This document shows, piece by piece, positions 10,790 to 59,098 of a stretch of 64,000 nt of DNA (position 1 is the first letter of the stretch; each line of letters begins with the position of its first letter). Below the pieces are notes generated by a model. It was not told the origin of the DNA. It searched no databases and worked only from the letters and a program-made list of their open reading frames with translations. Origin of the DNA: Myxococcota bacterium (lineage in GTDB: Bacteria > Myxococcota > Kuafuiibacteriia > Kuafuiibacteriales > Kuafuiibacteriaceae); NCBI GenBank assembly GCA_965223435.1, contig CBDCWQ010000023.1, positions 790,694-854,693 of the forward strand, written 5' to 3'. A program made the translations under genes and the position numbers.

Positions 10790-10863
10790 GGTAGCCACGA
10801 GACGCCCCGAGAGGTAGACGGCTTGAGGGTCGTTCCCAGTGGGCACTGACGGGAGGAGTAGCC

Positions 10864-13763: not shown

Positions 13764-13787
13764 CGGTTTCAAAAAGGGAGCACAGTG

Positions 13788-19300: not shown

Positions 19301-22300
19301 CGCTTGGTCGGCCATGCTGTCTTCGTGTGCAAGCATGGCATAGATGGTGGATTCGCGTTTATCCGTCTCGTCCACATCGAGATTGCCGAACCGGGCAACG
19401 GAAAAATCACGTGGTCTGGGCATGGTGACCACCCGGGCGAGTTGTATCAGCTCGAAACCGAGATCGGTATTGGGGTGCTCGAGCGTGAGACTCGTGACCG
19501 GTTTGGGGCCCAGTCGTTTTTGAAGGGCAGCCTGAAAACCTTCGCTGGCCTCTTCACACGAGACGCCGACGAGAGGGCGAAGGTCTGGCGAGGTTCCGAG
19601 GAGTCGGGTTCCTTCGCAAAGGGTACGGAGTTCGTGGACGGTTTCGAGGAGGCGGTCTTCTTGGGGGGTGCTTAGGACGGTCTGGGGCCAGTCTCGAACC
19701 GAAACCTTTTGAACGTACAGGTCGTACGCCGAACCGATGTTCATCAAGCGGTGCAACAAAGTGTCGAACACATGGTCGTTTTGGTCAGACATCAAGAGCC
19801 CGGCCAGAGTCTCCGTGTAGCGGTAGCGGAGCCGATCGCGAACTTCATTGAGATCGGGGATGTTTACCCCGGAGGAGTCAGGAAGCCTGACATCAAGGTC
19901 GGCGAAGGCTGGGAGGTCGAACGGTTCGGTGCTGGGCGGTAAGGTGAAAAACATGTGGCCGGCGCCGTGTCCAAAAAGGCCGACGGGCTCTTCGAGGATG
20001 GCAAGGCCCGCGAGTTCGGTGATGCTTGGCGAGGCGCCGGGCACCAAGGATCCAAATTCGTGCCACGCGAGCTCCTCAAGCCGGGCATCGAGGCGGGCAG
20101 CGGCCCTTTGGGCGAGGACCGGCAGCAGTGGGCTTTGGAGCAAGTTGCTGTCCGCGGACCAAGCGGGGGCGGCATCGGGTGCCTCGTTTTCAGCGACCCA
20201 GGTTATGGCCTCTTTCCAACGAAACAATACGGTTTCGCTCATGGACTGCGAGTGGAATAGAGCCAGGGCGTAGAGCGCCGCGGTGCCTCGGTGGACCACG
20301 TCTGATTCCACTTTCGTCGTGGTGCCGTCTGGAAGCAGCTGGAGGAAAGGAATCAGCCGCCCACGCTCGGCATCCCAAAAGTCGTTCACGATGGCCACAT
20401 ACAGTTCATCGGCCCACCGCATGAGGAAGTGCGCCGTTTCTCGATCCCCATGGAACAAGATAGAGCCGAGGTGTTTAACCGATACCCAGGCAAATATGTG
20501 GTCCGTCAAAGAAAGAATTGGGGTGCGCGGGAAGCCGGTTTTCTCATGGAGGATCGGTGGGGTCTCAAGCTCTAGGGATCTTTTCTCGAGGCCTAAGGCG
20601 CTCCGGGCTGCTGTTGGGTCTCCACCTTCGGTCAGAAGGCGCCCGTCGCTTTCGCTTACGCCGTAGAGGTCCCGAATCGAAAGGGCGAGGCGCGCCAGTT
20701 TCGCATTGATGGCGTCGGTCCATTTGAAATATTGTTCGTATGATGACAGGGCGTACAGGGCGAGAAACTGCATACCGGTTTGGTAGTAGGGCTCGATGGC
20801 GGTGCCGGTTTCGCTGTCGAAGAAATACGGAAACTGGAGATATTCTTCCCCATCGTAGGTCCGGGTTTCGAGGGCGGACATAAGGGCCTTGGACCACTCG
20901 CGGAACCAGGTTGAGTCTGATCCGACCCGATTCAGGTGAATCCGCTGTCGCCGCTGGCGGGCGGCAAAGATCGCCAGGGCTTGGTCCTCAAGAAGGGTGA
21001 CGGGGCGCTCGCTTTTGGCAAGACGCCGCGAAACCACCGGGCCCACCGCGGCCGTGTCTCCGCGCAGGCTGTCCTCGACCCCGCCGAGCCCTTGGGAAAT
21101 GTCGATGATTTCGTACCGATGATGTCCGCCGAAGCGGTGGTGAAACGACCAAACGCCCGCGCCCGCGGTCCACGGGAGGTGCTCCCAACCGCGATAGTCC
21201 CCGAAGCGGTAGACCGAACTTGCGCGGATATGGGGGGCGGTGGGAGACATGAGACGGGCAACCGGAACGGCCTGGATATCTGCCTTGGTAGAGGGCAGGT
21301 TGTGGATGGGCTCGGGTTCTACGCCCGGGGGTGGGACGTCGGTCCATTGACCGTCCTCTCGTTGATACAGGGGGCGGTTGCCGGGGGCCGTGGGGGCCCA
21401 CCCCTCTTCGTCGATGGTGGGGTTTGGAAAGCCTTCTTGTCCCGCCGGGTACGCGAACTCGAATTCCCCAGAGTCGCCGACGTGGTAGAGCGATACAAAC
21501 CATTCGACGTCGTCGATGATCAGGGTGAGCATCAGCGTGCGCGCGCTTCCAGGAGGATCACGGACGCGGCCCTTCAAGACAATCTCGACCTCGTCAAACA
21601 GCCCCCAAGGATTCAGGTGCGACAACAGGCCTTCCGGGGGACGTTTGCGCGCAAAGGCTTCGACCCAGACGGCGGTGGTGTTCACGGGAACGTCGGCGAT
21701 CTCGGTCATGGGAGGGGCGTCACCCCCGGGCACCTGTCGGATGGACGAGGTGGCCAGGCGTTCGTGGCCGGCTTCCGTGATCCATAGGCGCACGCGATAT
21801 TGCGCCGGGTCACCCTCACCGATGTAGGCGCCCCAGGCCGGGTCTCGCCGCCCGTCTTCGAGGCGGGGACCGGCGTAGGCCGTGAACAGGCGGTCTTCAA
21901 AGTTGTGAAGGGCGCGGCCCTTAAGCGCTTCCCAAGCGTCGTCGATGACGGTCTGGGCGCGACGCACATCGACGCCGCGGGCATAGTTGGCGAGAGGCCG
22001 GTCGAGGTCGCGGACGCCACCTTGAATTTCGTCGTAGACGTCGATGAACCAAATGGCGGCCGTGCTGGAGTCGAGTACCGTCATCAGGTCTTGCATCCGG
22101 CGGCTCGAATAAGGGAAGCCGTGGTCTCGAACGAAACGGTTCATGTCGGTGTACAGCACGTCGAGCTCTTGGGCGAAAGCGGAAGATTGTTCGCGCTCGG
22201 GGTGGGCGTCGACGAATCGTTTGAGGCCCAAGATGAGGCCGGCGGTGGCCTCCAAGTGGTACAGGGTTTCGTGGTCGTTGCTGGGGGTGATGTAGGGGTC

Positions 22301-25300
22301 AGAGAACGAATTGGGAAAGTAGTGGGTGCCTCGGTACGTTTGCCCTTGGTAGGGCAGTTCTTTGACAAAGGCGGCGATGGTGTAGTCGAGACACTGCTCG
22401 AGTTTGGTGATGTGGTCCTCTTCGAGGCTCGGATAGTCTACGGACAACGAGAGCCAGCTGCAGTTGTCGATGGCCGAGACCGGGCTCGGGTGAAAGCTTT
22501 GACCCTCAAAGTGGCCCCCGGTGATGAACCGTTCGTTTGCTGGATCCCAGAGTTTGTCGAAGATCGCGTCTCGTAATCGGTTTCGCCAGCGTTTCAGGGC
22601 GTCCTCGAAGGGGTGGTATTCCGGTTTGGCCCGACTTCGGATGGTCTCCCAGTGTTTCAGGGCGTGGTTGAGAACGCTCAGCTGATCCAGATTGTGCTCG
22701 GTCACCACGTGGGTTGCAGGGGTGGGCACCTTGAGTGCGTCGAAATCCGCAGCGGTGAGGGTTCGGGGCTCAAGGATTGACTGCGGGTCGCCGGGGGCGA
22801 ACCGAGACACCACCGGGGGATCCTCGGGATTGTAGCGGCGGTATCCGATGGCATCGAGGACCTCGTAGTAAGCCCAGCCGATGCCTGGTTCTTCGAGGCC
22901 CAGGATGTGGGGCTCGTCTTGGTTCACCAACCCCAAGGTGGTTCGGCCTGCGGTCATAAGGCCCGCGTTTTGGTGCGGCTCCAGTCCTCGGAGTGCTTCG
23001 AAGTAGCAAGCGACGAGTGATTCTTGGCCGTCTTTGTTGAGGTCCAAAAAGGCGCGGTGGGTGATGAAGGTTCCGAGGCCGTGAACCGCCCAGGCATTGG
23101 CGCCGGTGACCAAGCGGGCATCGGCCCAGTCATCGGACCGCGTGTTCCATGAAAAAGGCCAGCCGAAGATCACGGCTTCGCCGTCGCCGTTTTGGCCTCG
23201 CTCGGCGTGTTGGCACAAGAAGTGGGCGAGGGGTGCGGCTCGGGGATCGCGGGTTCGGGTGTATTGCGCGAGGGCAATGCCCTGGGTGTAGGTCCATACC
23301 CGGTCAAATTCGGCCAAATAGCGGGTGTCGTCGTTGTCCTCGTCACCCAGGTATTCGAGCTGGGCGCCGAGTTCAGGGTTGAATAGGGCGTCGCGGAGGG
23401 TTTGGGCGCGGGCATGGTTTCCCGCGGCGCTCGGTGCTTCGAGCATAGGCGCTTCAGAAGAAGTCGCCAGTTCGGCATGCGGTGTGGGCGAGCTGGCGGG
23501 ACCGTCCACTTCCGCCGCCGCCAAGTGAACCCAGGGGTGCGCTTGCCTGAGCGCTTCCAGCGCAGCAGGTGTGGGCGCGCCGTGAGGAGAGGCCTCGGCC
23601 CAGATGGCTTGGTGCGGAGGCGTCTTCGCGTCGGTGGGTGCGCACCGATTGCTCAGCATGTGAAACGCGTCCACACATTCGATGGCCCCCGGCGTCGACT
23701 GGCCGCTCGCGGTGCGGGAAGGCGCGGTCAAGACGAAGCGCGCGGTCTCGGGCTCGGGCGTGATTCGGGCTCGGGTGGTCACGATGCGTGGGGCGTCATG
23801 TTCTCCCTTGGGGGCTTCGACCCAAGTCGCCAGGAGCAGACCTTGGTGGCTGACCACTCTGGGGGCGTTTTCGAGCCGATCTGCACCCTGGCCGTGGCTT
23901 CGGTGGTGGATGGGTTGTGCCTGTTGACCGCTCAGCAGGTGGGGCCGTGGCGTGGAAGGTTCGCCTTTTTGGGGCATGACCAGAGCCTGGATCGACCCCG
24001 GCTGGCCTGCGTTGCCCGCCTGGTAAAACACCGCCGCGCGGGTGTCGTCGGCGGCGAAGGCAGCGTCGGGAAGATAACCTTGAGCCCACTTTTCCGGGGA
24101 CGACCAGCTTTGACCGCGGTCCAAAGAGCGGGCCACCATCAATGGGTTGCCGGTGGCGGCGTTCGGATTGTGTGACGGGCCCTTTTCGTAGATGACCGTC
24201 AGCTGGCCGCCCTTGTTTCCAGAGACCTTGGGGTACGCGGGGCCCCATTCGGCGAGGGGTAAGGACGTCGATGGGTCATCACACGACACCGAGGCGGTCT
24301 CTTGGCGGTCGAACGTGTCGACCCGGTTGATCCGCCAGCGCAAAAAAGTGTCGTCCTTCCATACCCCTTGGCGCCATCCTTCTTCGACTTCGCGTTCTTC
24401 GTCGACCACGTGGACAAAGTTCCCCACCAGTTTGGGAACCCGGACGGTCTTTGTTGTGACTCGGGACCACGCATTTGGGCTCAAAGGCCGCTGCGCAACC
24501 TTGATGTGGTCTCGTTCGTCCCAGCTCCCCTCGACCAGATAGAAGGTTCGGCTTGGGTCCGCTTCACGCCACTGGTTGTCCATTCCGTTGCAGTCCAAAG
24601 CGTGGCGCCGGAGGGCCTGCCGGAATCCCTCGGGGCGCGCCACCGCGCCGAGCAGGGGGCATGCGAGCGCCTTTTCGGGCGTACGGGGCCCCGCCAACTG
24701 CCGATAGGGGCCAAAGCGTCCTGCCCAGTTTGGGTTTTTGACCGGTCGGTTGTCGAAGCTGCGGGTCTGACGGACGGCAATGGTGATCTGCTGGTCATCG
24801 AGGTGTAAAGACGGATGCTCCACGTAGTTTCTCTCGGTCCGTTCGAGGTAAAGACCAAAAGGCGCCCCCCCGTTTTGGGGGTTGGGCTCAAGGGCGAGGC
24901 TGTAGGATTCGGGAACGGGTTCAAGACAGTCGCAGGCATGGTCGTCGGTGCAGTTCGATGCGGGGTACAGCCGCCGGTAACGAACGACCTCGTCGTTGAT
25001 GGATCTTTTGGTTTCGTCAAACACGCTTCTTGGGGGACCTTCGAGGTTCTTGACGTAGAGCGCGCGGTGCGCTTCCCCCCAAACCAAGTGGAGGTCTCCG
25101 TGGATATCGATGCCGACGTCGATGCCGCGTTTCCATCCGGTGCTCTCGTGGACGACCATGGGCGTTTCGTCAAAGCCATAGCCCGCTTCTTGGCTTTGAA
25201 TGGCGTACACCCGGCTCTTGGCAGGTCCTTCGTCGGGGCCGCGTTCTTGGATCGCCAACCACACGATGGCGACCGCCTCCCGATGGGCGGCGATGGCCAC

Positions 25301-26878
25301 GTCTTGGATGAACCAGCCGGGGTTGGCTTGGGCCACGGTCAGCGGTGCGCTGAAGGACCCTCCTTTGGCCAATCGGTCGCTTCGGGCGTAGTGGATTTGG
25401 TCGGTACCGGAATCGGATTCGCCACGCGCCACATACGTGAGATGGGTGTGGACCGCATCGGGTCCTCGTCCAATGGCCATCTCGGGGAGCGTGGGCCGAT
25501 GGGGGCTTGCGGTGACGATACTCGGGGTTTCGAAGGTACCGGTCTTGGTGACTTGCTTCCTGGGTTGGGGACGAAGGGTGATGCGCGCGGAAGGAACGGA
25601 TTCGAAAGAGACGTCTCCGGTTCCTGGGAGCACCGCGGTGATGAACCAGACGGTGGTCTCGGTCGATGGCAGGGGACCCTCGTACCTTGGGTCGCTGAGC
25701 GCAATGGGCTTCGGGTCCGGATGCCGATACAATCGATAGCTCGGCCGCACGCCTTTCGGGATGGGTCTTCCGTTGCTGAGGAGTCGAGGCGCTTGCCACT
25801 GGAAGGTGGCGCGGCCTCCGTGGGACCACGCCAGAATTGACCTCGGGGGCCTCGGGGCATGGTCACTGACAAACGGCTCTTCATGGACGGTGATCTCAAT
25901 GGACTTTGTATGGGTGAGGCCCGCTCGGTCGAGGGCCACCAGTCTCAAGGGATGGGACCCCGCGGTCAGCGTCAGCGCGTGTTCGAAACGCCCTTCCTCC
26001 CAGGCGATGCTCTGATGTTGTCCAGTCCTGAGGTTTGTGAGTTCGAGCCCTTCGAGGTGGCGGTCCCAAACCCGGCCGCTGAGGATGTAATGAGGGGTGT
26101 AAATGTCTTCGTGGGATGGCCCGTCGAGAAGAAGCGCCGGACCCTCTTGGTCGACTGAACTGTGGAGCCCGTGGCCCGGCGCAGGACGCGCCGGGGGGGC
26201 GACGTCCAAACCGGTGCCATGAGGAGGCTTCTGATTCAAGGGATCGGTGTCCGGGGATGGGCTTTCTTCCGGCGAGGGTTGCCGAACCCAGTAGACTTGC
26301 CCTTGGGCTAGGGTAGAACCGCTCGTCCACTCTTTTGGCGCACCGGTTTGTGCATCCCACGTCAGGACCGTCGCGGGTGCCAGGGCGTCCACGTGCAGGG
26401 GTTTCTTTGCCCAAATCAATGCAGGATGCGTGGAGGACAATGGGGCGAGGGAGGGGGGCTCCCTCGGGATGTCGGACTCGGAAGCGCTCGGGGCCACGTA
26501 GATCCAGTAGGGTGCATGGGGGTGAAGGCGCCGAGTCGGCCGAGGGCCGGACTCCCTTTTCTCTGGGGGCCGCGACGCGGACCGGGCGTCGTACGCGACC
26601 CAGCGGTGCGAGGGCAGATCGTTTAAAAGATTTTTGGCTTCGCCGCCCCCAAGGAGATGCCATCCAGCGGAGAGTTCCAAGATCCCCGTGCCGCCGACGG
26701 GTGGGGCTTCATGCCGTTCGGGGGCGCGGCCGCAACCCAAAAAGAGCGCCAGCAGGAGGTGTATGTTCCGGTGGCGCCCCTCGGCATGCCTTCGGCGCCC
26801 TTGAAACGGGCGCTTCGGCACCCGTCGCTTTTCCCATCGCTTCATGGAGGTCCCCCCTCGATGCTTTTCTTGCACCAA
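16352..26878 (-). CDS. Giant secreted (lipo)protein paralog A, 3508 aa. Layout: signal peptide with lipobox-like LFLGC, bacterial Ig-like repeats, FN3-like region, BNR/Asp-box region with Cys cluster, large conserved helical core, unique ~1000-aa C-terminal region.
   Basis: Single uninterrupted ORF. Probable start MKRWEK… at 26845 rather than 26878. Asp-box 'SLDRGQSW'. Shares motif blocks with paralogs B and C ('DNCSWLSLSVDY', 'GTHYFPNSF', 'YHLEATAGLILGL', 'GFPYSS', 'RLVTGANAWAVHGLG', 'VVTEHNLD…LSVLNHA'). Confidence 0.8.
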   Translation of the reverse strand: MVQEKHRGGTSMKRWEKRRVPKRPFQGRRRHAEGRHRNIHLLLALFLGCGRAPERHEAPPVGGTGILELSAGWHLLGGGEAKNLLNDLPSHRWVAYDARSASRPPEKRESGPRPTRRLHPHAPYWIYVAPSASESDIPREPPSLAPLSSTHPALIWAKKPLHVDALAPATVLTWDAQTGAPKEWTSGSTLAQGQVYWVRQPSPEESPSPDTDPLNQKPPHGTGLDVAPPARPAPGHGLHSSVDQEGPALLLDGPSHEDIYTPHYILSGRVWDRHLEGLELTNLRTGQHQSIAWEEGRFEHALTLTAGSHPLRLVALDRAGLTHTKSIEITVHEEPFVSDHAPRPPRSILAWSHGGRATFQWQAPRLLSNGRPIPKGVRPSYRLYRHPDPKPIALSDPRYEGPLPSTETTVWFITAVLPGTGDVSFESVPSARITLRPQPRKQVTKTGTFETPSIVTASPHRPTLPEMAIGRGPDAVHTHLTYVARGESDSGTDQIHYARSDRLAKGGSFSAPLTVAQANPGWFIQDVAIAAHREAVAIVWLAIQERGPDEGPAKSRVYAIQSQEAGYGFDETPMVVHESTGWKRGIDVGIDIHGDLHLVWGEAHRALYVKNLEGPPRSVFDETKRSINDEVVRYRRLYPASNCTDDHACDCLEPVPESYSLALEPNPQNGGAPFGLYLERTERNYVEHPSLHLDDQQITIAVRQTRSFDNRPVKNPNWAGRFGPYRQLAGPRTPEKALACPLLGAVARPEGFRQALRRHALDCNGMDNQWREADPSRTFYLVEGSWDERDHIKVAQRPLSPNAWSRVTTKTVRVPKLVGNFVHVVDEEREVEEGWRQGVWKDDTFLRWRINRVDTFDRQETASVSCDDPSTSLPLAEWGPAYPKVSGNKGGQLTVIYEKGPSHNPNAATGNPLMVARSLDRGQSWSSPEKWAQGYLPDAAFAADDTRAAVFYQAGNAGQPGSIQALVMPQKGEPSTPRPHLLSGQQAQPIHHRSHGQGADRLENAPRVVSHQGLLLATWVEAPKGEHDAPRIVTTRARITPEPETARFVLTAPSRTASGQSTPGAIECVDAFHMLSNRCAPTDAKTPPHQAIWAEASPHGAPTPAALEALRQAHPWVHLAAAEVDGPASSPTPHAELATSSEAPMLEAPSAAGNHARAQTLRDALFNPELGAQLEYLGDEDNDDTRYLAEFDRVWTYTQGIALAQYTRTRDPRAAPLAHFLCQHAERGQNGDGEAVIFGWPFSWNTRSDDWADARLVTGANAWAVHGLGTFITHRAFLDLNKDGQESLVACYFEALRGLEPHQNAGLMTAGRTTLGLVNQDEPHILGLEEPGIGWAYYEVLDAIGYRRYNPEDPPVVSRFAPGDPQSILEPRTLTAADFDALKVPTPATHVVTEHNLDQLSVLNHALKHWETIRSRAKPEYHPFEDALKRWRNRLRDAIFDKLWDPANERFITGGHFEGQSFHPSPVSAIDNCSWLSLSVDYPSLEEDHITKLEQCLDYTIAAFVKELPYQGQTYRGTHYFPNSFSDPYITPSNDHETLYHLEATAGLILGLKRFVDAHPEREQSSAFAQELDVLYTDMNRFVRDHGFPYSSRRMQDLMTVLDSSTAAIWFIDVYDEIQGGVRDLDRPLANYARGVDVRRAQTVIDDAWEALKGRALHNFEDRLFTAYAGPRLEDGRRDPAWGAYIGEGDPAQYRVRLWITEAGHERLATSSIRQVPGGDAPPMTEIADVPVNTTAVWVEAFARKRPPEGLLSHLNPWGLFDEVEIVLKGRVRDPPGSARTLMLTLIIDDVEWFVSLYHVGDSGEFEFAYPAGQEGFPNPTIDEEGWAPTAPGNRPLYQREDGQWTDVPPPGVEPEPIHNLPSTKADIQAVPVARLMSPTAPHIRASSVYRFGDYRGWEHLPWTAGAGVWSFHHRFGGHHRYEIIDISQGLGGVEDSLRGDTAAVGPVVSRRLAKSERPVTLLEDQALAIFAARQRRQRIHLNRVGSDSTWFREWSKALMSALETRTYDGEEYLQFPYFFDSETGTAIEPYYQTGMQFLALYALSSYEQYFKWTDAINAKLARLALSIRDLYGVSESDGRLLTEGGDPTAARSALGLEKRSLELETPPILHEKTGFPRTPILSLTDHIFAWVSVKHLGSILFHGDRETAHFLMRWADELYVAIVNDFWDAERGRLIPFLQLLPDGTTTKVESDVVHRGTAALYALALFHSQSMSETVLFRWKEAITWVAENEAPDAAPAWSADSNLLQSPLLPVLAQRAAARLDARLEELAWHEFGSLVPGASPSITELAGLAILEEPVGLFGHGAGHMFFTLPPSTEPFDLPAFADLDVRLPDSSGVNIPDLNEVRDRLRYRYTETLAGLLMSDQNDHVFDTLLHRLMNIGSAYDLYVQKVSVRDWPQTVLSTPQEDRLLETVHELRTLCEGTRLLGTSPDLRPLVGVSCEEASEGFQAALQKRLGPKPVTSLTLEHPNTDLGFELIQLARVVTMPRPRDFSVARFGNLDVDETDKRESTIYAMLAHEDSMADQAGGTLSNKLRRLWTQAAEKTVTTVTPPYYFTPEIDLIALKNSASPNYWHRTAIELRAIEKHEKTPRFHTGAISPQVALDQLLYAQPTWIPGGAFIISDEADYAFFQENVRQLRRFINRYHSGNLPDLAETAGLTPLRVHLMMRTGRITESDFDRLANAARLPPDEKDTTKSSFVFTPEDNMPSNDEDRSSSKHSEKLGTTELAGLGPPGVIATKSRTLVLKELARHFDDLLALPPELAAVTAVAPSVLSYAASLGLEVDPGLLGVFVGSAPPSPHAWEPVGLVRGEDLLAPFGTYLKDEDVLRTTVPVYTSTDLGRDPLLGPSILMNDDRIYHVTIDWMGVDQTPFGSLGILTFEDGALFEVHALKSAHPQSDILAAFVKNHLRMKKAEESLSFLPDAMKAQILFWIELTIRGEFSQKEAERYAHFRTPPVTYMANAPGVEDSPPPSNPTESTDTLKQEASKLPDASAHPSPELPLQPIGVVPPKEPQLGDGYGKSTQLMTLAALLRVSGMYVYSTAIPTSLKEHKRLTSPKNRAQTFILRNFAGLASVFLGTNKDMVQAVQTNFYEARHDLMNIHPVVDQALTPYPERSTAAIIEKLYALHKEELSPAKEKAGLWVPLHTVNPETGKGGPVLIGFSAFAEGLFGPNIRPRWGPPEENPNTLDPEIHEAKFPGPFAIIDVIPDPSAGALFETKRLYQPSQPFVRLENALLSMTLGQTYFVPACRVCRVPIEKTSAARVIDAMQTQFDDAFGVAKVIDDVFLPYRSIDLLAIKKKDPEEAFRVMSGQTGAALFGTALFLAFVPAIAKADGNTFEFEAEAIQIFMSSDWQVDRVLLKDVLKDLSPFELAPGPKPTVTLESYLRFLEDQWKEHLRMPQAGQTPLNPQETALNPQHRAALGFEPQAAAINTFNPINAFMHRTLQDDDERALYIATLNGPDTVQILRFWKEDATYPNGRMYFTPNQSVEEWNYWLLDEPNPTSAPDGD

Positions 26879-27024
26879 GTCCGCACCCGAAAGCTACCGG
26901 TGGGGCGGTGTCAAGAGGCATGGCGAGAGATCAGAACGGTGAGGTGGGTTTCCCCTTCTGAGAAGCGCGCGCGGGCAAATTCTCAATCGTCGCGCTTTTC
27001 AGATCGAGGAGCAGAAAAATGGGG

Positions 27025-27870
27025 TCATGAGGCTCCCGCTGCGGTCCGGTCGATTTGTTTCTTGATGGTTTCTTCGATAAAGACCCTGTTTGAGAGGGTC
27101 ACCGTGCCTGTGTCTTGCTCGAGGACGACTGCGGTTGGGGTGATGGAACGGAGGGTTCCTGTTTCGCCTTTGACCTCGATGGTGTCACCGATTCGGAATA
27201 CCTTTCTCGCATAAAATCCGGCGAGCATGTTGCGGGTGATGTCGCGGGTCCCCAGCCCAAAAGAAAGGCCAAAGGCAAGCGCTGCCCCGGCGAGAATTCC
27301 GGCGGACAGCAAACGGATGATATCGGTGTCAAGTTTGAGCTGGCCAACGGCCATCACACCGATGACAAAGATGATTCCGCCCGATACGATGTTGCCCAGC
27401 GAAGAGGCAAAATCAATCCCCGCGTTTTTGGCGTTTTGGGTGATGATACGACCGGAAAATTGCGCTGCCGTACCGCCGAAAACCAAGATCACGATGGCGG
27501 CACCCAGGTTAGGGAGATAGCCCAGGAATGACCCGATGGCCTCTGAAATGACCGTGAGCCCCAAAGCGTCGCATGCGGTTCGGGTAAACAAGACCAGCAA
27601 CAAGAAATAAACAACTCGAGGGACCAGTTCGCTCAGCTGGGACCGAACGCCCATGCGATCGATCATTTGTCGGATGCCTACTTTGGCTGAAAGGCTATCG
27701 ATTTTGATGCGGGCCAGAACCACCTGGAAAACCCGCGCGATGATTTTTGCCACGAACAGCGCGCCAATAAACAGGAGGATTCCCGTTGCGATTTTGGGGA
27801 TCCACGCGGCAGCGGTCTCGAAAAACTCAGTGAATGACGAAGTGAGGCTGTTGATAACCTTGTCGAGCAT
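27025..27870 (-). CDS. MscS-family mechanosensitive channel-like membrane protein.
   Basis: Multiple TM helices. C-terminal 'IGDTIEVKGETGTLRSITPTAVVLEQDTGTVTLSNRVF' MscS beta-domain signature. Start MLDKVIN at ATG 27870 (the track ORF extends to 27924). Confidence 0.7.
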   Translation of the reverse strand: MLDKVINSLTSSFTEFFETAAAWIPKIATGILLFIGALFVAKIIARVFQVVLARIKIDSLSAKVGIRQMIDRMGVRSQLSELVPRVVYFLLLVLFTRTACDALGLTVISEAIGSFLGYLPNLGAAIVILVFGGTAAQFSGRIITQNAKNAGIDFASSLGNIVSGGIIFVIGVMAVGQLKLDTDIIRLLSAGILAGAALAFGLSFGLGTRDITRNMLAGFYARKVFRIGDTIEVKGETGTLRSITPTAVVLEQDTGTVTLSNRVFIEETIKKQIDRTAAGAS

Positions 27871-27872
27871 GT

Positions 27873-28100
27873 TTATCCTTTGGGGTCTGTGCGTTGAAAA
27901 CCGAGTGCTTCGAAGAGGGTACAAACGTACTCTACCAAGACCTTGGTCCAGCCGTGGTAGGGCACCTCGGCGATTTGCGAAGCGAGTTGTCGTCTGAAGA
28001 TCGTCCGACGAACGCGCTCTACAAAACGTGCCTCGGGGAGATCCTCGAGGGCTTTGAGATCGAGGGGGCGGTCCGTCCCGTTGTCCAAGTCGTCCGTCAT
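27873..28100 (-). CDS. Small 75-aa protein encoded directly downstream of the ECF sigma factor. Candidate anti-sigma/regulatory partner.
   Basis: Start overlaps the sigma-gene stop (TGATG). No recognisable motif; assignment is by genomic context only. Confidence 0.3.
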   Translation of the reverse strand: MTDDLDNGTDRPLDLKALEDLPEARFVERVRRTIFRRQLASQIAEVPYHGWTKVLVEYVCTLFEALGFQRTDPKG

Positions 28101-28723
28101 CAGGTCAACTCATTCGCGCCGGCTCTGGGCTCGAGTTCTTGGTAGCGGCGACGAAAGGCCTCTCGACCGCGTTTGATGCGCATCTTGGTCGCCGATAACG
28201 TGATGCCGAGCTTTTGGGAGATCTCTTCGTAGCTGAGGCCATCCAGATCGCGGAGCACCACGGGTATGCGGAGCGTGTCACCCAGGCTATCGAGCACGTA
28301 CGTGATTCTTGCTTGTTCTTGGGTTCGACCGACCATTTGTTCAGCCACAGGCGGTGTCTGCATTTCAGGCCTCGCCTCGATACTGGGGTCCACCATGTCC
28401 ACGTGGGTTCTTTTTCGGTTCTTCGCCACATAGTTGAGGCAGTGGTTGATCTTGATTCTCTGCAGCCAGGTTTTGAATGTGGCTCGGTGTTCGAATTTTT
28501 CGATGCCAAAGAACGCCTTCACAAAAACTTCTTGGGCGAGGTCCTCGGCATCTTGAGGGGCTCCAGTCATGTGTCTACAGTTGGCTTGGATATGGCCTTG
28601 GTGGCGGGCCACCAAGGTTTCGAACGCCCAAAGGTCATCCCGAGGCCCCGAAACGGTGCGCTCGACGAGCTCTTCGTCGGCCATCGCACCCAGGCTCTTC
28701 TTGGTGGGCCTTCCTTTGTCCAT
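28100..28723 (-). CDS. ECF-type RNA polymerase sigma-70 family factor.
   Basis: Region 2 'DLAQEVFVKAFFGIEKFEHRATFKTWLQRIKINHCLNYVAKNRKR' and region 4 'LSYEEISQKLGITLSATKMRIKRGREAFR'. Confidence 0.85.
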   Translation of the reverse strand: MDKGRPTKKSLGAMADEELVERTVSGPRDDLWAFETLVARHQGHIQANCRHMTGAPQDAEDLAQEVFVKAFFGIEKFEHRATFKTWLQRIKINHCLNYVAKNRKRTHVDMVDPSIEARPEMQTPPVAEQMVGRTQEQARITYVLDSLGDTLRIPVVLRDLDGLSYEEISQKLGITLSATKMRIKRGREAFRRRYQELEPRAGANELT

Positions 28724-29100
28724 GCCTTCCTATCGTTGGCGAACCCTTCGACCAGAGCTCTGCCCCAAAAGTCACATCCGCACGCGTGGCCGCTGGCCGA
28801 CAAGAAAATCCAGTCGTTCTGACCCGTTCCGGGGCCTTTTCTGCCCCCGCCGGCACACGGTCCTCGTCTTATCCTCACCTGGGGTTCGATAGGGAGCCCT
28901 TCGTTGCTGGCGTGCGGCCTGGAAAATCAGCTTCGCCCTCCTGCCGGGGGCCCGGCGGACAGGGTGAGAACTATGGGAATTTACCCTGTTTGTCTCGCGG
29001 CTGCGATGGGCAGGCCGCCCGTCGGGTTGTGTTGTCGGTGGCAAGCCGCCAAGCTCAGCCGGTGTCGACCGAGGGTGTGAGCCCCAGCGTGCCGCGGAAA

Positions 29101-31239
29101 ATGCCTGGCATGGAGTATCTGGACAGGGTTCCCCAGTCTGCGATCCTTCTTTTTGGCATTCAGCTTGAGCGAAACGCTGCGTACCAGTCTTTCAAACAGC
29201 GGTTTCCCGGAGCCCAGCACTTGAGCTTGGACGGAGGCCTCAAAAAAAACCTCAAGGGAAAAAAGAGGGGACAACGGACCTGGCAAGCCATCGAAGACCT
29301 CAAAAAAGCCCAACCCCAGGTCATCTTGGTGGTGCAAAACTACCGCTATCTCAAACTTTTGGCATTGACCGCCTCGGGCGCGATCGTTCTCGTCTATCGG
29401 GCCGGACGCATCACCCCCTTTGGGCTGCTTGGGGCTGCCATACCCATGGAGCGCACCTTGCGGGCGCGCGCCCAAAACGGAGCCCGTCGCCTTTTGAGCA
29501 CGGTGCTCAAACCCAAGGTTCCTGAGCCCATCGGCGCGGGAAACGATTACAGTTTCATCAAGCGTCGGGTCAAGACCGACTCCCCTGCATCTTGGCACCT
29601 GAAGCTTTCGGTGGTGATTCCCGTCTACAACCGCAAAGCGGTTCTCGACAAAACGCTGGCGGGTCTTTGTCTTCAGACCTACCCCAAGGACCTGTTTGAG
29701 GTCATCGTCAGCGATGATGGGAGCTCAGACAACCCCAACTCTGTCATCGACCGGTATCGTGACCGGCTCAACATACGTTACGTTTGCCAAGAAGATCTCG
29801 GTTTCCGAGCCGCCAAAGCGCGCAACCGGGCCATTTTGGCGGCCGACGGTGAGGTGATCGTATGCCTTGATTGCGATATGCTGCCACCGCCTGGGTACCT
29901 CGCTGCCATGGCAAGGTGGTTTCACGTATACGACGGCCCCCTTGCGGTGATAGGCTACCGGAAGTTTGTCAACACCGATGATGTGAACGCCGATGAGATT
30001 CTCGCCGACTTCGGGGTGGTGCATCGCCTCCCACCGGTGCCCGCACCGCTTGCCATTCGCGTCAGAGATCGCCCCTATGAGGACTGGAGGGTTGCGTCCA
30101 CCGAGAAGTCAGAAGGCTTGAAGACCCACCGCGTCCCGTATAGCGTATGCGCTTCGGGCAATGTGGCTTTTGGGCGTCAGTTGGCGCTTGATGCCGGGCT
30201 TTTTGACGAGGCTTTTTGCCAGTGGGGTGGAGAGGATATGGCTTTTGCCTATCAGCTTTATCGCCGTGGTGCGTACTTCGTCTACGAACCCCGCGCCGAT
30301 GCGTACCACCAAGACCATCCGGACTACGCCCGCCGCGCCGAATCGCAAAAAGCGTCGCGCAGGATGCTGGGTAGACGGGTGCCGTTTTGGCGAAAATTTG
30401 TCGAGGACCGCGAAGGCCCCTTCGAGGGCCCAAAGGTTTCGGTCTACATACCGGCCTACAACTGTGATGCCTGGCTGGTACGCACCATCGAAAGCGCCCT
30501 TTGCCAGACGCTCGAAGACCTCGAAGTCTGCGTATGCAACGATGGCTCGACCGACCGAACGCAAGAGGTGCTTGAGACGCACTATGGCAGTCATCCGCGG
30601 GTTCGCTTTGTGACTCAAGAAAACCAGGGCATCGCCGCTGCGTCTCGAGCCGCGGTTGATTTGTGCCGAGGGGAGTACATTCTTCAACTGGACTCTGACG
30701 ACGAACTTTTACCCTACGCGGCCGAGACGCTGGCCGCGGTCCTTGACAGCGATGTCTCTATCGCATTGGCGTACGGCGGTTTCGAAATTCACGATCCCGG
30801 GGGCCTCCTGTATGAAAAAAAAGAGTCGGTGCCTCAAGCTTTTGACAGCTTTGATCTCCTTCTTGGCTGCGTGACCTCCGCGCCGCGGATGTTTCGGGCC
30901 CGAGACTACTACCGCACCGAGGGCTTCGACCGTTCTTTGCTCAATGCCGTGGACTACGATATCTACCTGAAATTGGCAGAACAGGGCCGCGTACAGGCGG
31001 TTCCTGAGGTTCTTTACCGCTACTACGTGCACGGTCAAAACACCTCATTTCGTGAGCGCGCCACCCAGTTCAAGAACCATCGCAAGGTGGTCGAAAACGC
31101 GCTCAAACGGCGGGGACTGGACTGGGAGATTACCGTGCCGGATCCGTCTCGGCCGCGGGGGCTGCGTTTACACCCACCCGGGGGCCTGTTCCGCAGCGCG
31201 CTCACCCATCTGGCGTTTATGGTCGCGGAGTCGAAGTAG
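29101..31239 (+). CDS. Tandem two-domain family-2 glycosyltransferase (GT2-GT2, ~712 aa).
   Basis: Two GT-A cores: 'LSVVIPVYNRKAVLDKTLAGLCLQTYPKDLFEVIVSDDGSSD…VIVCLDCDMLPPPGY' and 'VSVYIPAYNCDAWLVRTIESALCQTLEDLEVCVCNDGSTDRT…ILQLDSDDELLPYA'. The track ORF 28477..31239 extends through non-coding upstream sequence. First plausible ATG is 29101 (MPGMEYL). Confidence 0.8.
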   Translation: MPGMEYLDRVPQSAILLFGIQLERNAAYQSFKQRFPGAQHLSLDGGLKKNLKGKKRGQRTWQAIEDLKKAQPQVILVVQNYRYLKLLALTASGAIVLVYRAGRITPFGLLGAAIPMERTLRARAQNGARRLLSTVLKPKVPEPIGAGNDYSFIKRRVKTDSPASWHLKLSVVIPVYNRKAVLDKTLAGLCLQTYPKDLFEVIVSDDGSSDNPNSVIDRYRDRLNIRYVCQEDLGFRAAKARNRAILAADGEVIVCLDCDMLPPPGYLAAMARWFHVYDGPLAVIGYRKFVNTDDVNADEILADFGVVHRLPPVPAPLAIRVRDRPYEDWRVASTEKSEGLKTHRVPYSVCASGNVAFGRQLALDAGLFDEAFCQWGGEDMAFAYQLYRRGAYFVYEPRADAYHQDHPDYARRAESQKASRRMLGRRVPFWRKFVEDREGPFEGPKVSVYIPAYNCDAWLVRTIESALCQTLEDLEVCVCNDGSTDRTQEVLETHYGSHPRVRFVTQENQGIAAASRAAVDLCRGEYILQLDSDDELLPYAAETLAAVLDSDVSIALAYGGFEIHDPGGLLYEKKESVPQAFDSFDLLLGCVTSAPRMFRARDYYRTEGFDRSLLNAVDYDIYLKLAEQGRVQAVPEVLYRYYVHGQNTSFRERATQFKNHRKVVENALKRRGLDWEITVPDPSRPRGLRLHPPGGLFRSALTHLAFMVAESK

Positions 31240-31245
31240 ACGCCC

Positions 31246-31262
31246 CTGATCCATGGGATCAG
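31246..31262. terminator. Short inverted repeat (ctgatcc-atg-ggatcag) in the 19-bp gap between the convergent GT2 and giant-paralog-B stops.
   Basis: 7-bp stem. The only intergenic sequence between two convergent stop codons. Confidence 0.25.
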
Positions 31263-34200
31263 TCGGGGCCGCCCACCAACCATTTGGTTTCAAGGAGGCC
31301 TTTGGGACCAATGGTTTCTTTGTACGATTTGAGCGTTGTCCCTGTGGGGTCGACGACCTTGATGTAGCGCTTCCCGTACCCTGGGTTGTTCGCGGCGTGG
31401 AAGAACTCGAAGCGGTAGTTGCCGTCGGGCAGTTTCTCGGTTCGGAAATGTTGGCCCTTGTCCTTGGCGTGGCGGTAAAACTGGTTGGCGCTTGTTCTCA
31501 GGCCACCGGTGAATCCTTTTCGCGCTTCCTGTCGTGAAAGGAAATGGATCGTTGGATTTGTGGAGACCTCAGAAGAAATGGGTCTTTTCAAAGGCACGGT
31601 GAAAATGTTTCCGGTTCGGCCCAGGCTGATTTTTGTGGCCGATGCGAACTTTGGGGCGGTGGTGCTGGCAACCTTGACAAAACCCAAACCCGCGAGGGCG
31701 GCGGTTCCAAGCACGGCACCTACTTTGGCGACGGGAATGGGGGCCAGACCCAAAAGGTCGAGCAAGGTGATGGGGATGGCTTCGCCATTGCCCTCGTAGG
31801 GGTAGTGCACGCTAAACGCGACGGCTTGGTCGCCTTGGTCGTCTTCGTACTCGAGGAGAATTTGAATCACCGGACAATCGGGATTGGTGTAACACTGGGA
31901 AAGATCGATGTTGTCGAGTGTTTCCTTGGTCTCCTCGTCGGCGTAGAGTCGTTCTTCTTCGTGCAATCGCTCGAGGTAGTCTGCAAGGCTGTAGATGCCG
32001 TGATCCTCAAGCTCTTCCCAAAAATCGGGGTCAATGAAAAGACCGCGTGGAAGTCGACCGTCACTGGCGAGACCCTCGAGGCTGTTGCCTGATTCGGGTG
32101 CTACGTTGACCGTGGGGCGGTTTTCGTTATGAATCGCAACGAAGATCAGGTCATCAACAAAAGACTGCCCGTCGTACACTTTGCCCGGCACCAGATCCGT
32201 TGAAAAGTCATTGTATTGGGCACGGAGTGTGCCCTGGTAGTGCTCCCTATCATCGGGATGGTGTGCGCCTTCTTGGAACCTGAGGTTGATGACCGTCTGG
32301 GCACGGGCATCCTCCGTGCCGTACCCCCAAACCGCGTTGATCTTTTGGGTGAACCGGGTCCGGTACGACTGACCGCCGCTGCCCACGGCGACATGCACCA
32401 GACGCTTGAGCTTCTGAATCGCTTCTTCCCTGGCATCAAGCTCCTGCTGGTAAGGCTCGGCACCCCGGAAGGGCCAAAAGGCGTCCACAATGGCTTCGTA
32501 GGCTTCGAGCCTGGTGCCTGACAGGTAGAGCCGGTCCAGCGCGTATCGTGTATCGCCTGTTTTTTCGAGGAAGCTTCGAATCTCTTTGAGCACCACCATT
32601 TCGTAAAAAACGCTTTGGGCCTCAGCGCGCACCCAGGCGTTGAAGTGGGCTTCACGCCACGCTTTTTCTGACAAGGCCGCGCGTGACCATCCGGCGAGGG
32701 TACAGGTGCCGGAGCCATCCGCGCAGGCGTACACCTGGTCTTCGGTCTGTTGATGAAACAGGGGGTGATTGTGGGCGATGCGATGGGTCAGTTCGTGCGC
32801 AATGTGGCCAATCAACCGTTCGGGGTTGAGGGCATGGCGTTCCGATATGAGCACGATTTGTTTGCCTACGGTTCCAGGAACAAAACCGGTTGGGCCGTCG
32901 GTCCACTTCATTTTCAAGCCCCGATCGGGGAGCTGCCTCTGAAGCCAGTTGAACATTGCGGACCGGCCGATGACCTCTTTCACCAGGGGGACATTGAGTG
33001 GGCTGTGGGCGTCTACGATGCGTTTGATGTCTTCCCGTGTTTGCTCGTCGAGGTCCTCGCTTGAGGGTGCGTGGCCGAAGGTGTCGTCATCGGCGTGTGC
33101 TTGGGTTGCTCCGAGCGGCTGTTTTCGGGGCTCGTTTGGACGTTCCTCGGCGTCGGGGAAATGCAACACCCGAGTCTCGATGAGGCCTCCATCGGTTTGA
33201 TTGATAAACTCCAGGGTGATGACCTTCTGGGGAGGGGAGAACGCCGACTCAGGGAACCCGGGAATGCCGCCGCATACCCGCAGCATCGAAGAGGCGCGCG
33301 GGACCAGGGTACGCTCGGGTACGCCGAGCGTTTCAGCCGGTTGGCCGTCCAAGAGGATATTGAGCCAAGAGGAGTCACTTCGCGCGGACCAGACGATGTT
33401 ATGGTCCCCAGTGTTTTCCAGGGGAACGTCCGCACACGGGCTGTGTTTCGAGATGGCTGGGATGGGGGCGGGGAGGCCAAGGCCTGAAGCACTTTGGACC
33501 AAATAGTCGGCGACCCGATGCATTTGACCGTCCACGTTGCGGGTGGCGGCGGCCGTGGCCTCCAACAACGGTGCGCACCGTTCGTCCTCGCCAAGGGCCC
33601 GGCAGCCTAGGAGGAAGTACACGAGTTCGTTGAAGCGGCCTAGGGTTTGGAATTCGCCCACTTCCTGTACGCCCATGGCGCCGCGCCCGCTCTGGTCGTG
33701 GACGGCGGCCAGGGTGCCGGGGTGAAGTCGGGTGTGAACCCAAGTCCCGTGTGGGCTGGTCACCCGGTGCTCGGTGGGACCCTCGGTTGACCCCCCGAGT
33801 CCGCTTCGGGTCAGGACCGTAAGCAGGTCGGCTTTGAAGCCGAGGTAAGGGCTCAAAATGCTCTGGGGCGCATGGGCTTGAATGTCCGCGGCATCCAGGC
33901 GAACGTCACCGATTTCTTGGTATGTGGTGTACGCTGTGTGGGCGACGATGCGTACCGACGAGTCCATATCCAAGAGGGCTTGGTTTGCGGCGCCCACGAT
34001 GCGATCGATGTCTTCGTTGAGTGCATCGACGCCCCCCGATTCTCGGACGGCAGAAGCCGTATAGAGAATGGCCATGTCGATGACGAGGGCATTTTCCTCG
34101 ATGGTGGGGTCCGAGTCGGGGATGCCGGGTCCGGGCGAGGCCTTGCCCCCGACCAAGGGGCGTCGGTACGCGCGGGGGAACACGGACGGGATCTGGGGAA

Positions 34201-37200
34201 GTTGCACATACCCAGAAAGGAAACTTCGGGTTTGGGGGGTGCTCAGCACCACGGCATACATGGGGTCGAATCTGTCTTGGGTGGGTGCGCGCTGAAAATA
34301 GGCTTCGAGCAGCCCGAGATCCTCGTAGGGTGACGCCTTAGCGCAGGCATCGATGCGATGCTGCTCAGCCTCCTCGACGGAAAGCGCGAGGAAGTCTTCG
34401 GGACTGAGCGTCTGGGCGTCGAATCGAAAAACTTCGTAACACACTTCTTTGCCAGGCAGCTCGGTGTTTCCGACCTCTTCGCTTGCGGGCAACACAAAGT
34501 GAACTCGGGGGTTTTTGGGTGTCGCCAGTTCGGTCCCTACCGACGGATTTACGGGGTCAAGAATCGCGGTCGCAAGACCGACTTGGTGAAGGGCCAGTTC
34601 GTTTTTGGGGGTTCCGGTTGCCGAAATATGCACCCGGGGGTCGTTCGGCTCTACAAAGGTAAATCCAGCCTTGTACGCATCAGCTTTTTCTTGGCTCAAT
34701 CCGACGGCGTTCATCATGGACATCAAGTGGGTCTCCAACAGGAGTCCGCTTCGCATGGCACGGTGCACAATAGACGGATCAAGGCCCGCTTGCCGGGCCA
34801 GCTTCGGAAGTTGGCCGCCGGCCTCGGCATTGATGAATCGGCGCAAATGCCCGGCGTTGGTGGCTTCGGCGGAACCGATGACCCCCACCCCAGGCTCTAA
34901 CATCTTCCACGCTTCGGGTAGGGGTTCTCGGGTCGGTATGCCCCCGAGTGCATATCGGGTTTGATGCTCGGGACCTTGGAGCACAAGGTATTCCAGGGCT
35001 TTGCGTCCGGACGCTTCCAGGGAGGCTTTGTTTCCAAGGCCGATGAAGTTGATGCCTTCGACTTCGAACCAGGGCGTTCTACCCAGGTGTCTTTGCTCGA
35101 GGAGCGCGTCTTGGAGGGTTGTTTGCCAGTGCGTTTGGAGCTGTTCTTTTCGCTGGGCGACAGACAGATCCGCGCTGAGTTCGACCGGGTCCGCTTCTCG
35201 AATGAAATCGAAGCTTACCGGGCCCTTGGGCGCCTGGACAATCTGGGTGTTTCCGTGAAGCGAATCGCCGTAGCTGTGGGGCGACGGGACATCGTCTCGG
35301 GTGAGTTGGTAGATGCGCTGGGTCAACTCAAAGGCGTCGTGAGGGTGCTCGATGAGGGCGGCCAGTCGAGAGGGGTCCTCGCTGGTTCCAGTACGGGCTA
35401 CGAGCAGAGCTTTGAAGTGGGCGCTGGCGGCTTCGCAAGAGAGTCCCAACGAACGGTTCAGATCCAAGCCGGTGAGGGCGCCTTGGTTTCGGCTTTCGCA
35501 GAGGTTTTGGAGCGCCCAAACCGTATAAGCCACCCGGTGGCTGTAGGTCTCTTCCCGGTAAAAACTGCGCCACCTCTCAACCGGAACACCTTCGTGCAGG
35601 GCTTCGGCCAGGGCGACCAGCTGGACCATACGGTTCATCCCGGTGTCGAAGCTTTGGGGCCGGTAGGGTGACAAAAAGAGGCTGAGCAGGGTATCCAATC
35701 CCTGCTGCTCGATGCGGCGCTGGACCCTTTCTTCCCAATGGAGGGCGCTTGGGCTTCGTACGAAGGCCACCGGGCTGGCGGTGACCCCAAACAGGTCTTT
35801 GGGATGTTCGGCCAACAGCATGGCCGCCATCGAACCCGGACCCGCCGATGCCGAAAGCAGGGTTTCAAGGCGGCTCCACGCCAGTTGCTCGAGCCGCGGG
35901 TCGATGCGTGCGCCGCCGCGCTCGGCGAGGACGACCAGGGCGAAGGAATTCGAAAAGTCAAAGCCCTTGCCGTCTGCCCACGTGTCCTTCAGCGCATGGG
36001 TCAGTCCGGCCAGGCGGTCCAGCGACAGGTGCGCGCGCCGTACAAGACCTCTTTCGAGCGCGAACAAGGTGTAGAGCGCATGCATGCCGATGCTGTCTTC
36101 GGTGGCATCGACCTTCTGTTCGTCGGATGGGTCTTGGATAAACCGCAAGGGTCGATCGTCTTGCCAAAAAGCATTCTCAAGTTTGTCCTCGACCGAGCGT
36201 TTGAGATCTTTTGCGAGGGCTCGGCCCTTTGGGTCTGGCAGAACCTCGGCTGCCCGGGCAAAGGCAAAATACGCATAGACATGGTCACGGAGCGAGGCGG
36301 ACGCAAAAACGGGAAGGGATACGTCTTCCGGATGGGGTTCTTCGGCGTTTCCTTCGAGGGCCTTTGCCCACGCCTCGGGAAAGCCGTTTCCGCTTTGGAA
36401 AAAACCTTCCAGGGGGTGCCCGGCTTCCTGGTGGAAATAGGCTGTCCGCATCGATTGCTGAAGTTTGAGGATGTGCTCGGCCAGCGTCTGGGCACGCGCC
36501 GGGTGCACCGGTTCGAGGGCCCGGTGGAGGGTCGCCAAGGCGTACAGCGCCATCATTTGGCTTCCGGTTTGATAGTAGGGCGCCACCGCGACCCCGGTTT
36601 CCGCGTCGACGGCGTAGGGAATCAGAGCCAGTGGGTTTTCGGGATGAAACACAGTCTGGGTGACCCGCTTTAAGGCCCAGCCCCAGGCCCAAGCCTGCTC
36701 GAGATCCCCTCGGTGGACGGCGGCCAGAACCGCCAGCGCTTGGTCTTCGGTTCGGGTGATGGGACGGGCCCCTTCTTGGTCCGATTTCGTATACCCCGAC
36801 ACCAACAGGGCCAGGTCCTTTGCGTGGGCGGCGGCGATGGTGTTTTGGGCGTGGTCTTTCAGTTCGAAGGTTTCGCTGTCGGCTCCGTGGATGAACCATT
36901 CACCCTTTTTTCCCGAGTAGCGTGGCGTAGGCTGGTAGACCGCGTGGGCTGAGGTGGCATTCTGAATGCTGGTTGGGCCCCCGGTGGTGGCGAGTATCTC
37001 GCCCGAGCCTCGTCGAAGACGTGCGATTTTGGTCGAGAGGGTGAACCGGTGGGCGTCCCCAAGAAAGACCACCGCGTCTTCTTGTTTGAGCGCGGTTTCA
37101 AAGTGACCGCTTTCGTCGAGGGGGACGTCTTTCACAAAAAGCTCTCGCCCCTCCTGCCGAATGGAAAGTAAGACGCCAAGCTCGGGCCCGATTTCGATGC

Positions 37201-43543: not shown

Positions 43544-43585
43544 GGGGGGTCTTTCTCCTAAAAGACATATGTGGGTCCTGGTCAT

Positions 43586-59062: not shown

Positions 59063-59098
59063 CTTCTTACTCCGTGTTTTAGAGCCATGCCAAGCTTC

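Follow-up and report, generated by a model that had tools for sequence, protein, structure and literature searches.

A conserved ECF sigma factor, small-protein and MscS-type channel module and a KfoC-like glycosyltransferase, two probably independent units between giant genes of a Myxococcota bacterium

Between two giant genes, A and B, in a 64,000-nucleotide stretch of DNA from a Myxococcota bacterium (contig CBDCWQ010000023.1; the whole stretch is called the window here), positions 27,025 to 31,239 hold four genes: an extracytoplasmic function (ECF) sigma factor, a 75-amino-acid open reading frame (ORF), a gene for an MscS-like channel protein and, divergently transcribed, a gene for a glycosyltransferase (GT) with two GT2 domains. 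We consider it likely that this "island" is in fact two independent and ordinary units, the sigma factor module and the GT, which lie by chance between the giants and neither of which is dedicated to them. The first-pass annotation had the four genes in the right places, as ORF listing and domain scans confirmed, and had suggested that they serve the giants through envelope-stress-controlled expression, through glycosylation or through synthesis of a matrix polysaccharide that the giants bind. No functional tie of the sigma factor or the GT to the giants emerged, since neither a shared promoter motif nor co-conservation was found.

The sigma gene, the small ORF and the channel gene form an operon-like, translationally coupled unit. 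By direct reading, the ATG of the small ORF overlaps the sigma TGA by one base (TGATG), and the channel gene begins 2 nt past the TAA of the small ORF; this packing, which had been taken for that of an operon, is kept in dozens of genomes. In the first three contexts of sigma homologs, an unannotated gene of 82-91 amino acids came next after the sigma gene, then a gene for a PF05552 protein of 271-278 amino acids, and the flanking genes were unrelated. When an alignment of the channel protein was scanned against one genome per species, 80 loci were recovered, from Gemmatimonadota, Acidobacteriota (Bryobacterales, Vicinamibacterales and Polarisedimenticolia), one "Deltaproteobacteria" metagenome-assembled genome (MAG; 59% identity) and one Acidimicrobiia MAG. 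Of the 85 loci with a channel match, 81 have a sigma homolog as the immediate upstream neighbour, in the same orientation and 212-534 bp away from that match, and two of the other four end before any upstream DNA. Sigma homologs with 44-62% identity head the three-gene module in 81 loci, and the channel homologs in the +2 position are 40-59% identical to that of the window. Gene calls in three loci (L004, L089 and L090) show overlaps or gaps of 0-12 nt within the trio; L089 and L090, two Myxococcota-type contigs found via the small protein, carry the same trio with 4-8-nt overlaps. The module is preserved as a block across at least three phyla, and the genes that flank it vary in every lineage. 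Neither a homolog of the giants nor a KfoC-like GT was found in the 85 sigma-module loci (L004-L088), where the sole weak GT match was a single unrelated GT2 domain in L071, and the gene calls of L089 and L090 include no giant-sized and no tandem-GT2 gene.

The promoter evidence is of the same tenor. Bipartite words were enumerated in 300-bp regions ahead of a non-redundant set of 74 sigma genes (that of the window and those of 73 related loci), and one outstanding motif was obtained de novo, ATGTGACTTT[CT]-N11-12-[CT][GT]GTC[T][A]. With a strict pattern, 51 of the 74 regions have the motif 50-120 bp ahead of the sigma gene, and 45 of the 74 have a copy on the opposite strand. ECF sigma factors are known to autoregulate, and given this habit, together with the bipartite form, position and conservation of the motif, we infer that it is the putative cognate promoter of the sigma factor. 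A position weight matrix (PWM) built from loci other than the window gave exactly one match above 12 bits on both strands of the 64 kb, with a score of 28.0 bits at 28778-28746 on the minus strand, ahead of the sigma gene; in 20 Markov-shuffled windows, the highest scores were 10.4-16.8 bits. At a threshold lowered to 8 bits, there was no match upstream of giants A, B or C or of the GT gene.

The opposite-strand copies of the motif precede a recurrent set of genes. The first ORF after such a copy encodes MscL in 14 of the 42 loci with a divergent ORF (PF01741, E 1.7e-47; L010, L014, L017-L019, L025, L030, L048, L052, L073, L076, L078, L080 and L082, with mscL always on the strand opposite to sigma), which suggests joint control of two kinds of mechanosensitive channel by this ECF family. 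Other divergent genes encode an OprF-like beta-barrel with an OmpA domain, a BON-OmpA protein, a DUF481 outer-membrane barrel and a peptidoglycan-binding protein, the OmpA-type genes being those of L007 and L012 (beta-barrel plus OmpA) and L049 (BON plus OmpA). In the "Deltaproteobacteria" MAG with the closest channel relative (L016), the motif recurs as another strong copy (26.4 bits, 10824-10856, plus strand) just past the channel gene, and this copy precedes an ORF at 10865-11230 that encodes 121 amino acids and has no Pfam match.

The sigma factor matches Sigma70_r2 (E 1.6e-15) and Sigma70_r4_2 (E 1.6e-11) in Pfam, with PF04542 at residues 37-104 and PF08281/PF04545 at residues 140-191, and it has no further domain, neither sigma1 nor sigma3; the NCBIfam model TIGR02937 (sigma70-ECF) reaches 86.1 bits, above its cutoff of 42.9. 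With sigma2 and sigma4 only in about 200 amino acids, it is an ECF (group IV) sigma factor. None of the named equivalog models in NCBIfam reaches its cutoff on the protein, and many of its database homologs are 50-62% identical. The true start is probably M14 (28684), which gives 194 amino acids, because the 194-amino-acid database version and the N-termini of homologs agree on it. The divergent region shared with the GT gene was first given as 377 bp, a length that holds with the start at 28723 and not if the protein begins at M14, in which case the region measures 416 bp. The nearest solved ECF sigma factors are E. coli RpoE (1OR7), M. tuberculosis SigE and B. subtilis SigW (5WUQ), aligned over near full length with E values of 1.8e-21 to 1.8e-18, and the two-domain sigma2-sigma4 architecture is common to them and the window protein. 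These relatives pair with membrane-spanning class I anti-sigmas (RseA, RsiW), whereas the +1 gene in the window gives no ASD or zf-HC2 signal, and the -35/-10 elements in the window are GTGAC/GTC rather than of the GAAC/CGT type.

As judged by its conservation, the small ORF is a real gene, since its profile matches an ORF in every one of the 81 testable sigma-to-channel gaps, with E values of 1e-15 to 1e-44. The family has 122 database relatives of 72-104 amino acids, named "hypothetical" wherever the source gives a name. It is recognised via synteny and profiles only, because a single-sequence search with the 75-amino-acid ORF against 1.8 billion representatives gave just two weak matches to small proteins. 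No Pfam domain was found in any of 83 family members, and neither these nor the window protein matched an anti-sigma model (ASD, zf-HC2) in Pfam or NCBIfam. Family members begin with an acidic stretch, followed by a basic helix (F..R[VI]R..I.RR) and then by another helix in which a Glu is conserved (..L[LV]E[FY]L..[IL]F); in the window protein these helices read F..RVR..I.RR and, for the hydrophobic or amphipathic one, ..LVEY..LF. An AF2 model from 83 sequences has residues 1-23 as coil or disordered and residues 24-65 as one long helix, with a pLDDT of 75. The best 19-residue Kyte-Doolittle mean is 0.98 for the window protein and a borderline 1.48 for the family median; with the usual transmembrane threshold taken as 1.6, we rejected the idea of a clear transmembrane protein. 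A canonical class I anti-sigma was likewise rejected, there being no domain match and a probability of 1.8% from hhalign against zf-HC2 anti-sigma. We regard the small protein as a candidate non-canonical anti-sigma or adaptor. In a Vicinamibacterales MAG (L006 and L024), the small ORF is uncalled at about 10640-10889, where its N- and C-terminal halves lie in different frames, reflecting either a frameshift or an assembly error.

The channel protein matches PF05552 above the cutoff (52.9 bits, E 3.5e-14) and PF00924 over residues 210-269 (25.5 bits against a cutoff of 20.2, E 1.5e-5), and its hydrophobic segments lie between residues 20 and 208. Residues 112-270 align with a 171-amino-acid MscS in the PDB (9SEH, E 6.8e-6). 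On this evidence, it has the pore helix and beta-domain (PF00924) of the MscS family, and a channel function is predicted. The C-terminal alpha/beta cytoplasmic domain of E. coli MscS is absent, as the protein ends 12 residues past the beta-domain. The same core of pore helix and beta-domain, without the large C-terminal alpha/beta domain, is seen in the minimal 171-amino-acid MscS heptamer (9SEH, 9SDG and related entries) and in the beta-domain of MscM; compared with the 171-amino-acid MscS, the window protein has about 110 more N-terminal residues and the additional helices of PF05552. In a Myxococcales genome (L090 11194-12246 and L091 1366-2418), a fatty-acid desaturase gene lies directly after the channel gene on the same strand, reminiscent of the link in Pseudomonas between SigX, membrane fluidity and fatty-acid genes.

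It is in Pseudomonas that the nearest known parallel to the whole module is found. SigX, of group ECF102, is linked there with OprF, the CmpX channel and CfrX, a small protein of 84 amino acids and putative anti-sigma (PMC7826278, PMC8999054, PMC7641640), and an ECF reclassification found the channel conserved in further ECF102 subgroups (PMC7826278). One review classes SigX control as a "mechanosensing complex", of which SigX is the sole studied case, and describes CfrX as a small, apparently soluble, putative anti-sigma (PMC8999054). Transcription of cfrX-cmpX is SigX-dependent, and the SigX consensus is poorly defined (PMC7641640). As in the window, the SigX cluster of P. aeruginosa combines an ECF sigma factor, an MscS-type protein and a protein of about 80 amino acids without a recognisable anti-sigma domain. 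The MscS-type channel gene that marks ECF102 clusters is represented here by the PF05552 and PF00924 protein of 281 amino acids at +2 (81 of 85 loci), and the 75-amino-acid protein takes the place equivalent to that of the small protein beside the channel gene, a comparison made by position and size only. At 75-104 amino acids, the family fits the published description of CfrX, to which we liken it by size and description. SigX drives the small-protein and channel genes in Pseudomonas, and the same arrangement would apply here; an OmpA/OprF-type gene adjoins the module in some members (L007, L012), as OprF does in Pseudomonas; and in both cases the inferred regulon consists of envelope and mechanical-stress genes. 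The window itself has no OprF-type or OmpA-family gene and no CmaX gene, unlike the P. aeruginosa cluster, and the promoter in relatives often drives mscL, again unlike the SigX cluster. We suggest that the module is SigX-like in kind and that ECF102 is a candidate placement for it.

We envisage the first unit as a self-contained, autoregulated module of the SigX-CfrX-CmpX kind, made up of a sigma factor, a helical protein of about 80 amino acids and a minimal MscS-type channel. In such a module, the channel protein would sense membrane tension or fluidity, the small protein would hold or release the sigma factor, and the free sigma factor would transcribe its own operon and envelope genes elsewhere in the genome, such as mscL and OmpA-type genes, which we propose as targets because the copies in relatives carry the same motif. 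More broadly, we put forward tentatively, as a possibility to which we would give somewhat less than even weight, that the trio represents a mechanosensing type of ECF switch with a wide distribution, present in at least Gemmatimonadota, Acidobacteriota and Myxococcota-like bacteria, in which a soluble helical protein of about 80 amino acids couples a minimal MscS-type channel to release of a sigma factor that drives its own operon, mscL and OmpA-type genes via the distinctive promoter GTGAC-N17-18-GTC. If this were true, the still unproven SigX-CfrX-CmpX model would extend far beyond Pseudomonas, with a defined promoter and a testable core regulon. The regulatory logic of the module is unsettled even in P. 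aeruginosa, and the version described here is compact, strongly conserved and provided with a definable promoter. The comparison of loci yielded, as by-products, a conserved promoter, proposed targets of the mscL and OmpA type and a small-protein family of several phyla that is as yet uncurated; the promoter matrix, the small-protein family and the core regulon together offer a comparative handle on tension sensing by ECF sigma factors.

The second unit is the GT gene, which is divergent from the sigma operon and whose TAG lies 19 nt from the stop of giant B, as had been noted. Its product has two Glycos_transf_2 stretches (PF00535, E 5.4e-53), and in a phmmer search of the PDB it matched the E. 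coli K4 chondroitin polymerase (K4CP, or KfoC; 2Z86/2Z87) at E 5e-115, with residues 138-673 aligned to residues 63-602 of 2Z87. Both tandem GT-A (GT2) domains of K4CP align with the window protein, where the motifs LDCDM and WGGED of the first domain are kept, as are LDSDD and NAVDYD of the second; with the DCD and DSD motifs retained and the match spanning both domains, the description of a dual-domain, KfoC-like GT2 enzyme in the first-pass annotation stands. Identity to E. coli KfoC-type database sequences is 39-40%, and some of the database matches bear the names chondroitin synthase or putative glycosaminoglycan synthase. The N-terminal 140 or so amino acids differ from those of K4CP and are common only to a Myxococcota-type clade that includes the closest relatives (47-52% identical).

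The genomic context of the GT varies as well. One relative sits among methyltransferases and a second tandem-GT2 paralog, and a 47%-identical homolog (L003) adjoins KpsC/S-type (Capsule_synth) and ABC-transporter capsule genes; the loci of the three closest homologs present methyltransferase or Kps-type capsule contexts and no giants. No capsule export (kps), kfo or UDP-sugar genes were found in the 64-kb window, so that the group-2-type capsule locus (kpsMT, kpsCS, kpsDE) with UDP-sugar genes that characterises K4CP is absent from it. A polysaccharide polymerase with partner genes outside the window is the best reading of the GT. By homology, such an enzyme would build an alternating HexNAc/HexA-type (glycosaminoglycan-like) chain at the inner membrane face, and the chain would serve a capsule or exopolysaccharide pathway, the remaining genes of which would be encoded elsewhere. 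Judging from this lone KfoC-like polymerase, the Myxococcota-like organism may produce a glycosaminoglycan-like polymer, which, if confirmed, would be of interest to glycobiology.

The GT ORF is open from 28477 on the plus strand, and alignment with nine homologs supports ATG 29101 as the start rather than GTG 28786. The public version of the protein (817 amino acids) starts at GTG 28786, 315 nt upstream of 29101, and nothing in relatives corresponds to its extra 105 residues, a stretch rich in Arg, Gly, Pro and Ser; the longer start is probably a mis-annotation. A terminator-like hairpin with a T-rich run after it lies inside the divergent region at 29004-29033 (plus strand, like the GT gene), some 70 nt before the GT start; it could be a leader element or no more than a chance match. 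The gap between the GT and giant B is spanned by an imperfect hairpin with a folding energy of -21.2 kcal/mol for the minus-strand RNA (z -2.78) and -16.6 kcal/mol for the plus strand (z -1.2), which makes it a possible terminator for giant B.

The giants themselves are paralogs, 30-32% identical over 1,600-2,650 residues, and direct reading reveals lipoprotein lipoboxes in A (FLGC) and B (LSAC). They are nearly empty of Pfam matches, with Glucodextran_B in B and C and weak BNR, Laminin_G_3 and Peptidase_S8 matches in C, and no relatives of the giants were found in two metagenome scans or in a sequence search of the PDB. For a conserved block of 356 amino acids, a low-confidence model shows an (alpha/alpha)6 barrel.

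Several observations weigh against the reading that we prefer, and these are considered here together with the alternatives that they would favor. The low-confidence model of the giant domain resembles (alpha/alpha)6 glycan-acting enzymes, because of which the GT and the giants might be connected through a carbohydrate, and pattern scans and folding detected no terminator between the channel gene and giant A. Were the island a dedicated unit, the sigma factor would switch on the giants under envelope stress, and the GT would glycosylate them or make a matrix polymer that they bind. This would fit the physical adjacency of the units, the 19 bp between the stops of the GT and giant B, the Glucodextran_B, BNR and Laminin_G_3 matches of the giants, and the direction of the sigma operon, which points at giant A because giants A, B and C are all on the minus strand, and which lies 179 nt upstream of the likely start of A with no terminator-like hairpin in between. 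However, the motif occurs once in 64 kb, before the sigma gene, with nothing above 8 bits before A, B, C or the GT gene, and the proposed ECF control of the giants loses its footing. Co-conservation, which was assessed from the sigma and GT sides (no genome with a giant homolog turned up), fails equally: the 85 sigma-module loci have neither a giant nor a KfoC-like homolog, the GT homologs that are 47-52% identical sit in unrelated contexts, and in relatives the module stops at the channel gene, the following gene often being on the opposite strand. Moreover, KfoC-type enzymes are known as polysaccharide polymerases and not as protein glycosyltransferases. We therefore consider a dedicated unit very unlikely, and the tempting story of a private regulator and glycosylation enzyme for the giants loses support. 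A more modest alternative is that the sigma module is generic and its transcript nevertheless runs into giant A in this genome, so that A alone is co-induced with the stress response. The lack of a terminator-like hairpin after the channel gene allows for such read-through, and A would then be partly sigma-dependent. The two are on the same strand, and the 179-nt spacer has no minus-strand terminator-like site, a fold z of -1.4 against shuffles, which is not significant, no PWM match above 8 bits and no scored sigma-70-like promoter, although simple pattern scans are insensitive in DNA of 60% GC. On the other side, a 10.5-kb gene would normally be expected to have its own promoter, and nothing comparable lies downstream of the module elsewhere, the second motif of L016 driving a small ORF instead. 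We regard read-through into A as unlikely, and continue to prefer two independent units.

The SigX-like character of the module has its own counterpoints. The cognate status of the motif rests on position, bipartite form and conservation, and the likeness to SigX, CfrX and CmpX of P. aeruginosa is one of parts list, not of direct sequence comparison. The NCBIfam SigX model (PRK09640) gives 90.5 bits against a cutoff of 194 and scores below the SigE, RpoE and SigW models. Gene order differs too: here it is sigma, small protein, channel, whereas in P. aeruginosa cmaX-cfrX-cmpX lies upstream of sigX (PMC7641640). These observations would suit a separate ECF group that acquired its MscS-type partner independently and whose small protein is unrelated to CfrX, as would two further results, namely that the 122 relatives from the small-protein profile search include none from Pseudomonas and none with the name CfrX, and that a 27%-identical channel relative in Pseudoalteromonas, from a plasmid/chromid search, has no adjacent sigma gene. 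Yet the three component types are the same and of similar sizes (75-104 amino acids against 84 for CfrX), an OmpA/OprF-type gene adjoins the module in some members, the channel is conserved in further ECF102 subgroups (PMC7826278), and a word-seeded search is weakly sensitive for short proteins. A separate group is in our view rather unlikely, and we retain the SigX-like interpretation as the working one.

Table 1. Features of the region between giants A and B and of the giants themselves (positions in the window)
Feature	Position	Strand	Evidence or remarks
Giant A	16352-26878	-	3,508 amino acids
Spacer of 179 nt, channel stop to likely start of giant A	26846..27024	-	Terminator, promoter and fold scans
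Minimal MscS-type (CmpX-like) membrane protein, 281 amino acids	27025..27870	-	PF05552, PF00924, PDB 9SEH
Conserved small protein, 75 amino acids	27873..28100	-	Profile matches in 81/81 sigma-channel gaps
ECF (group IV) sigma-70 factor	28100..28723	-	Longest ORF 207 amino acids; Sigma70_r2, Sigma70_r4_2, TIGR02937
Putative autoregulatory ECF promoter	28746..28778	-	GATGTGACTTTT-N12-TGGTCGAAG; sole PWM match in the window
Bifunctional two-domain GT2, KfoC/K4CP-type homolog, 712 amino acids	29101..31239	+	phmmer against PDB, homolog alignment
Hairpin across the convergent-stop gap of GT and giant B	31237..31275		RNA folding
Giant B	31259-43585	-	4,108 amino acids
Giant C	43858-57444	-	4,528 amino acids

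The other genes of the window are of the housekeeping kind, and encode UvrD, an SLT transglycosylase, a LuxR-type response regulator, ThrRS, an MFS transporter and a GGDEF-EAL protein; tRNA and Rfam features were absent from the 64 kb. Directly upstream of giant C and on the same strand, a gene pair at 57911-59941 (minus strand) encodes a MauG/MbnH-like di-haem cytochrome c peroxidase and an MbnP-family protein. Just downstream of giant A lie a short glutamine-synthetase-like gene (344 amino acids) at 15120-16154 on the minus strand and a gene for a CHRD and Spondin_N protein at 13785-15029 on the plus strand.

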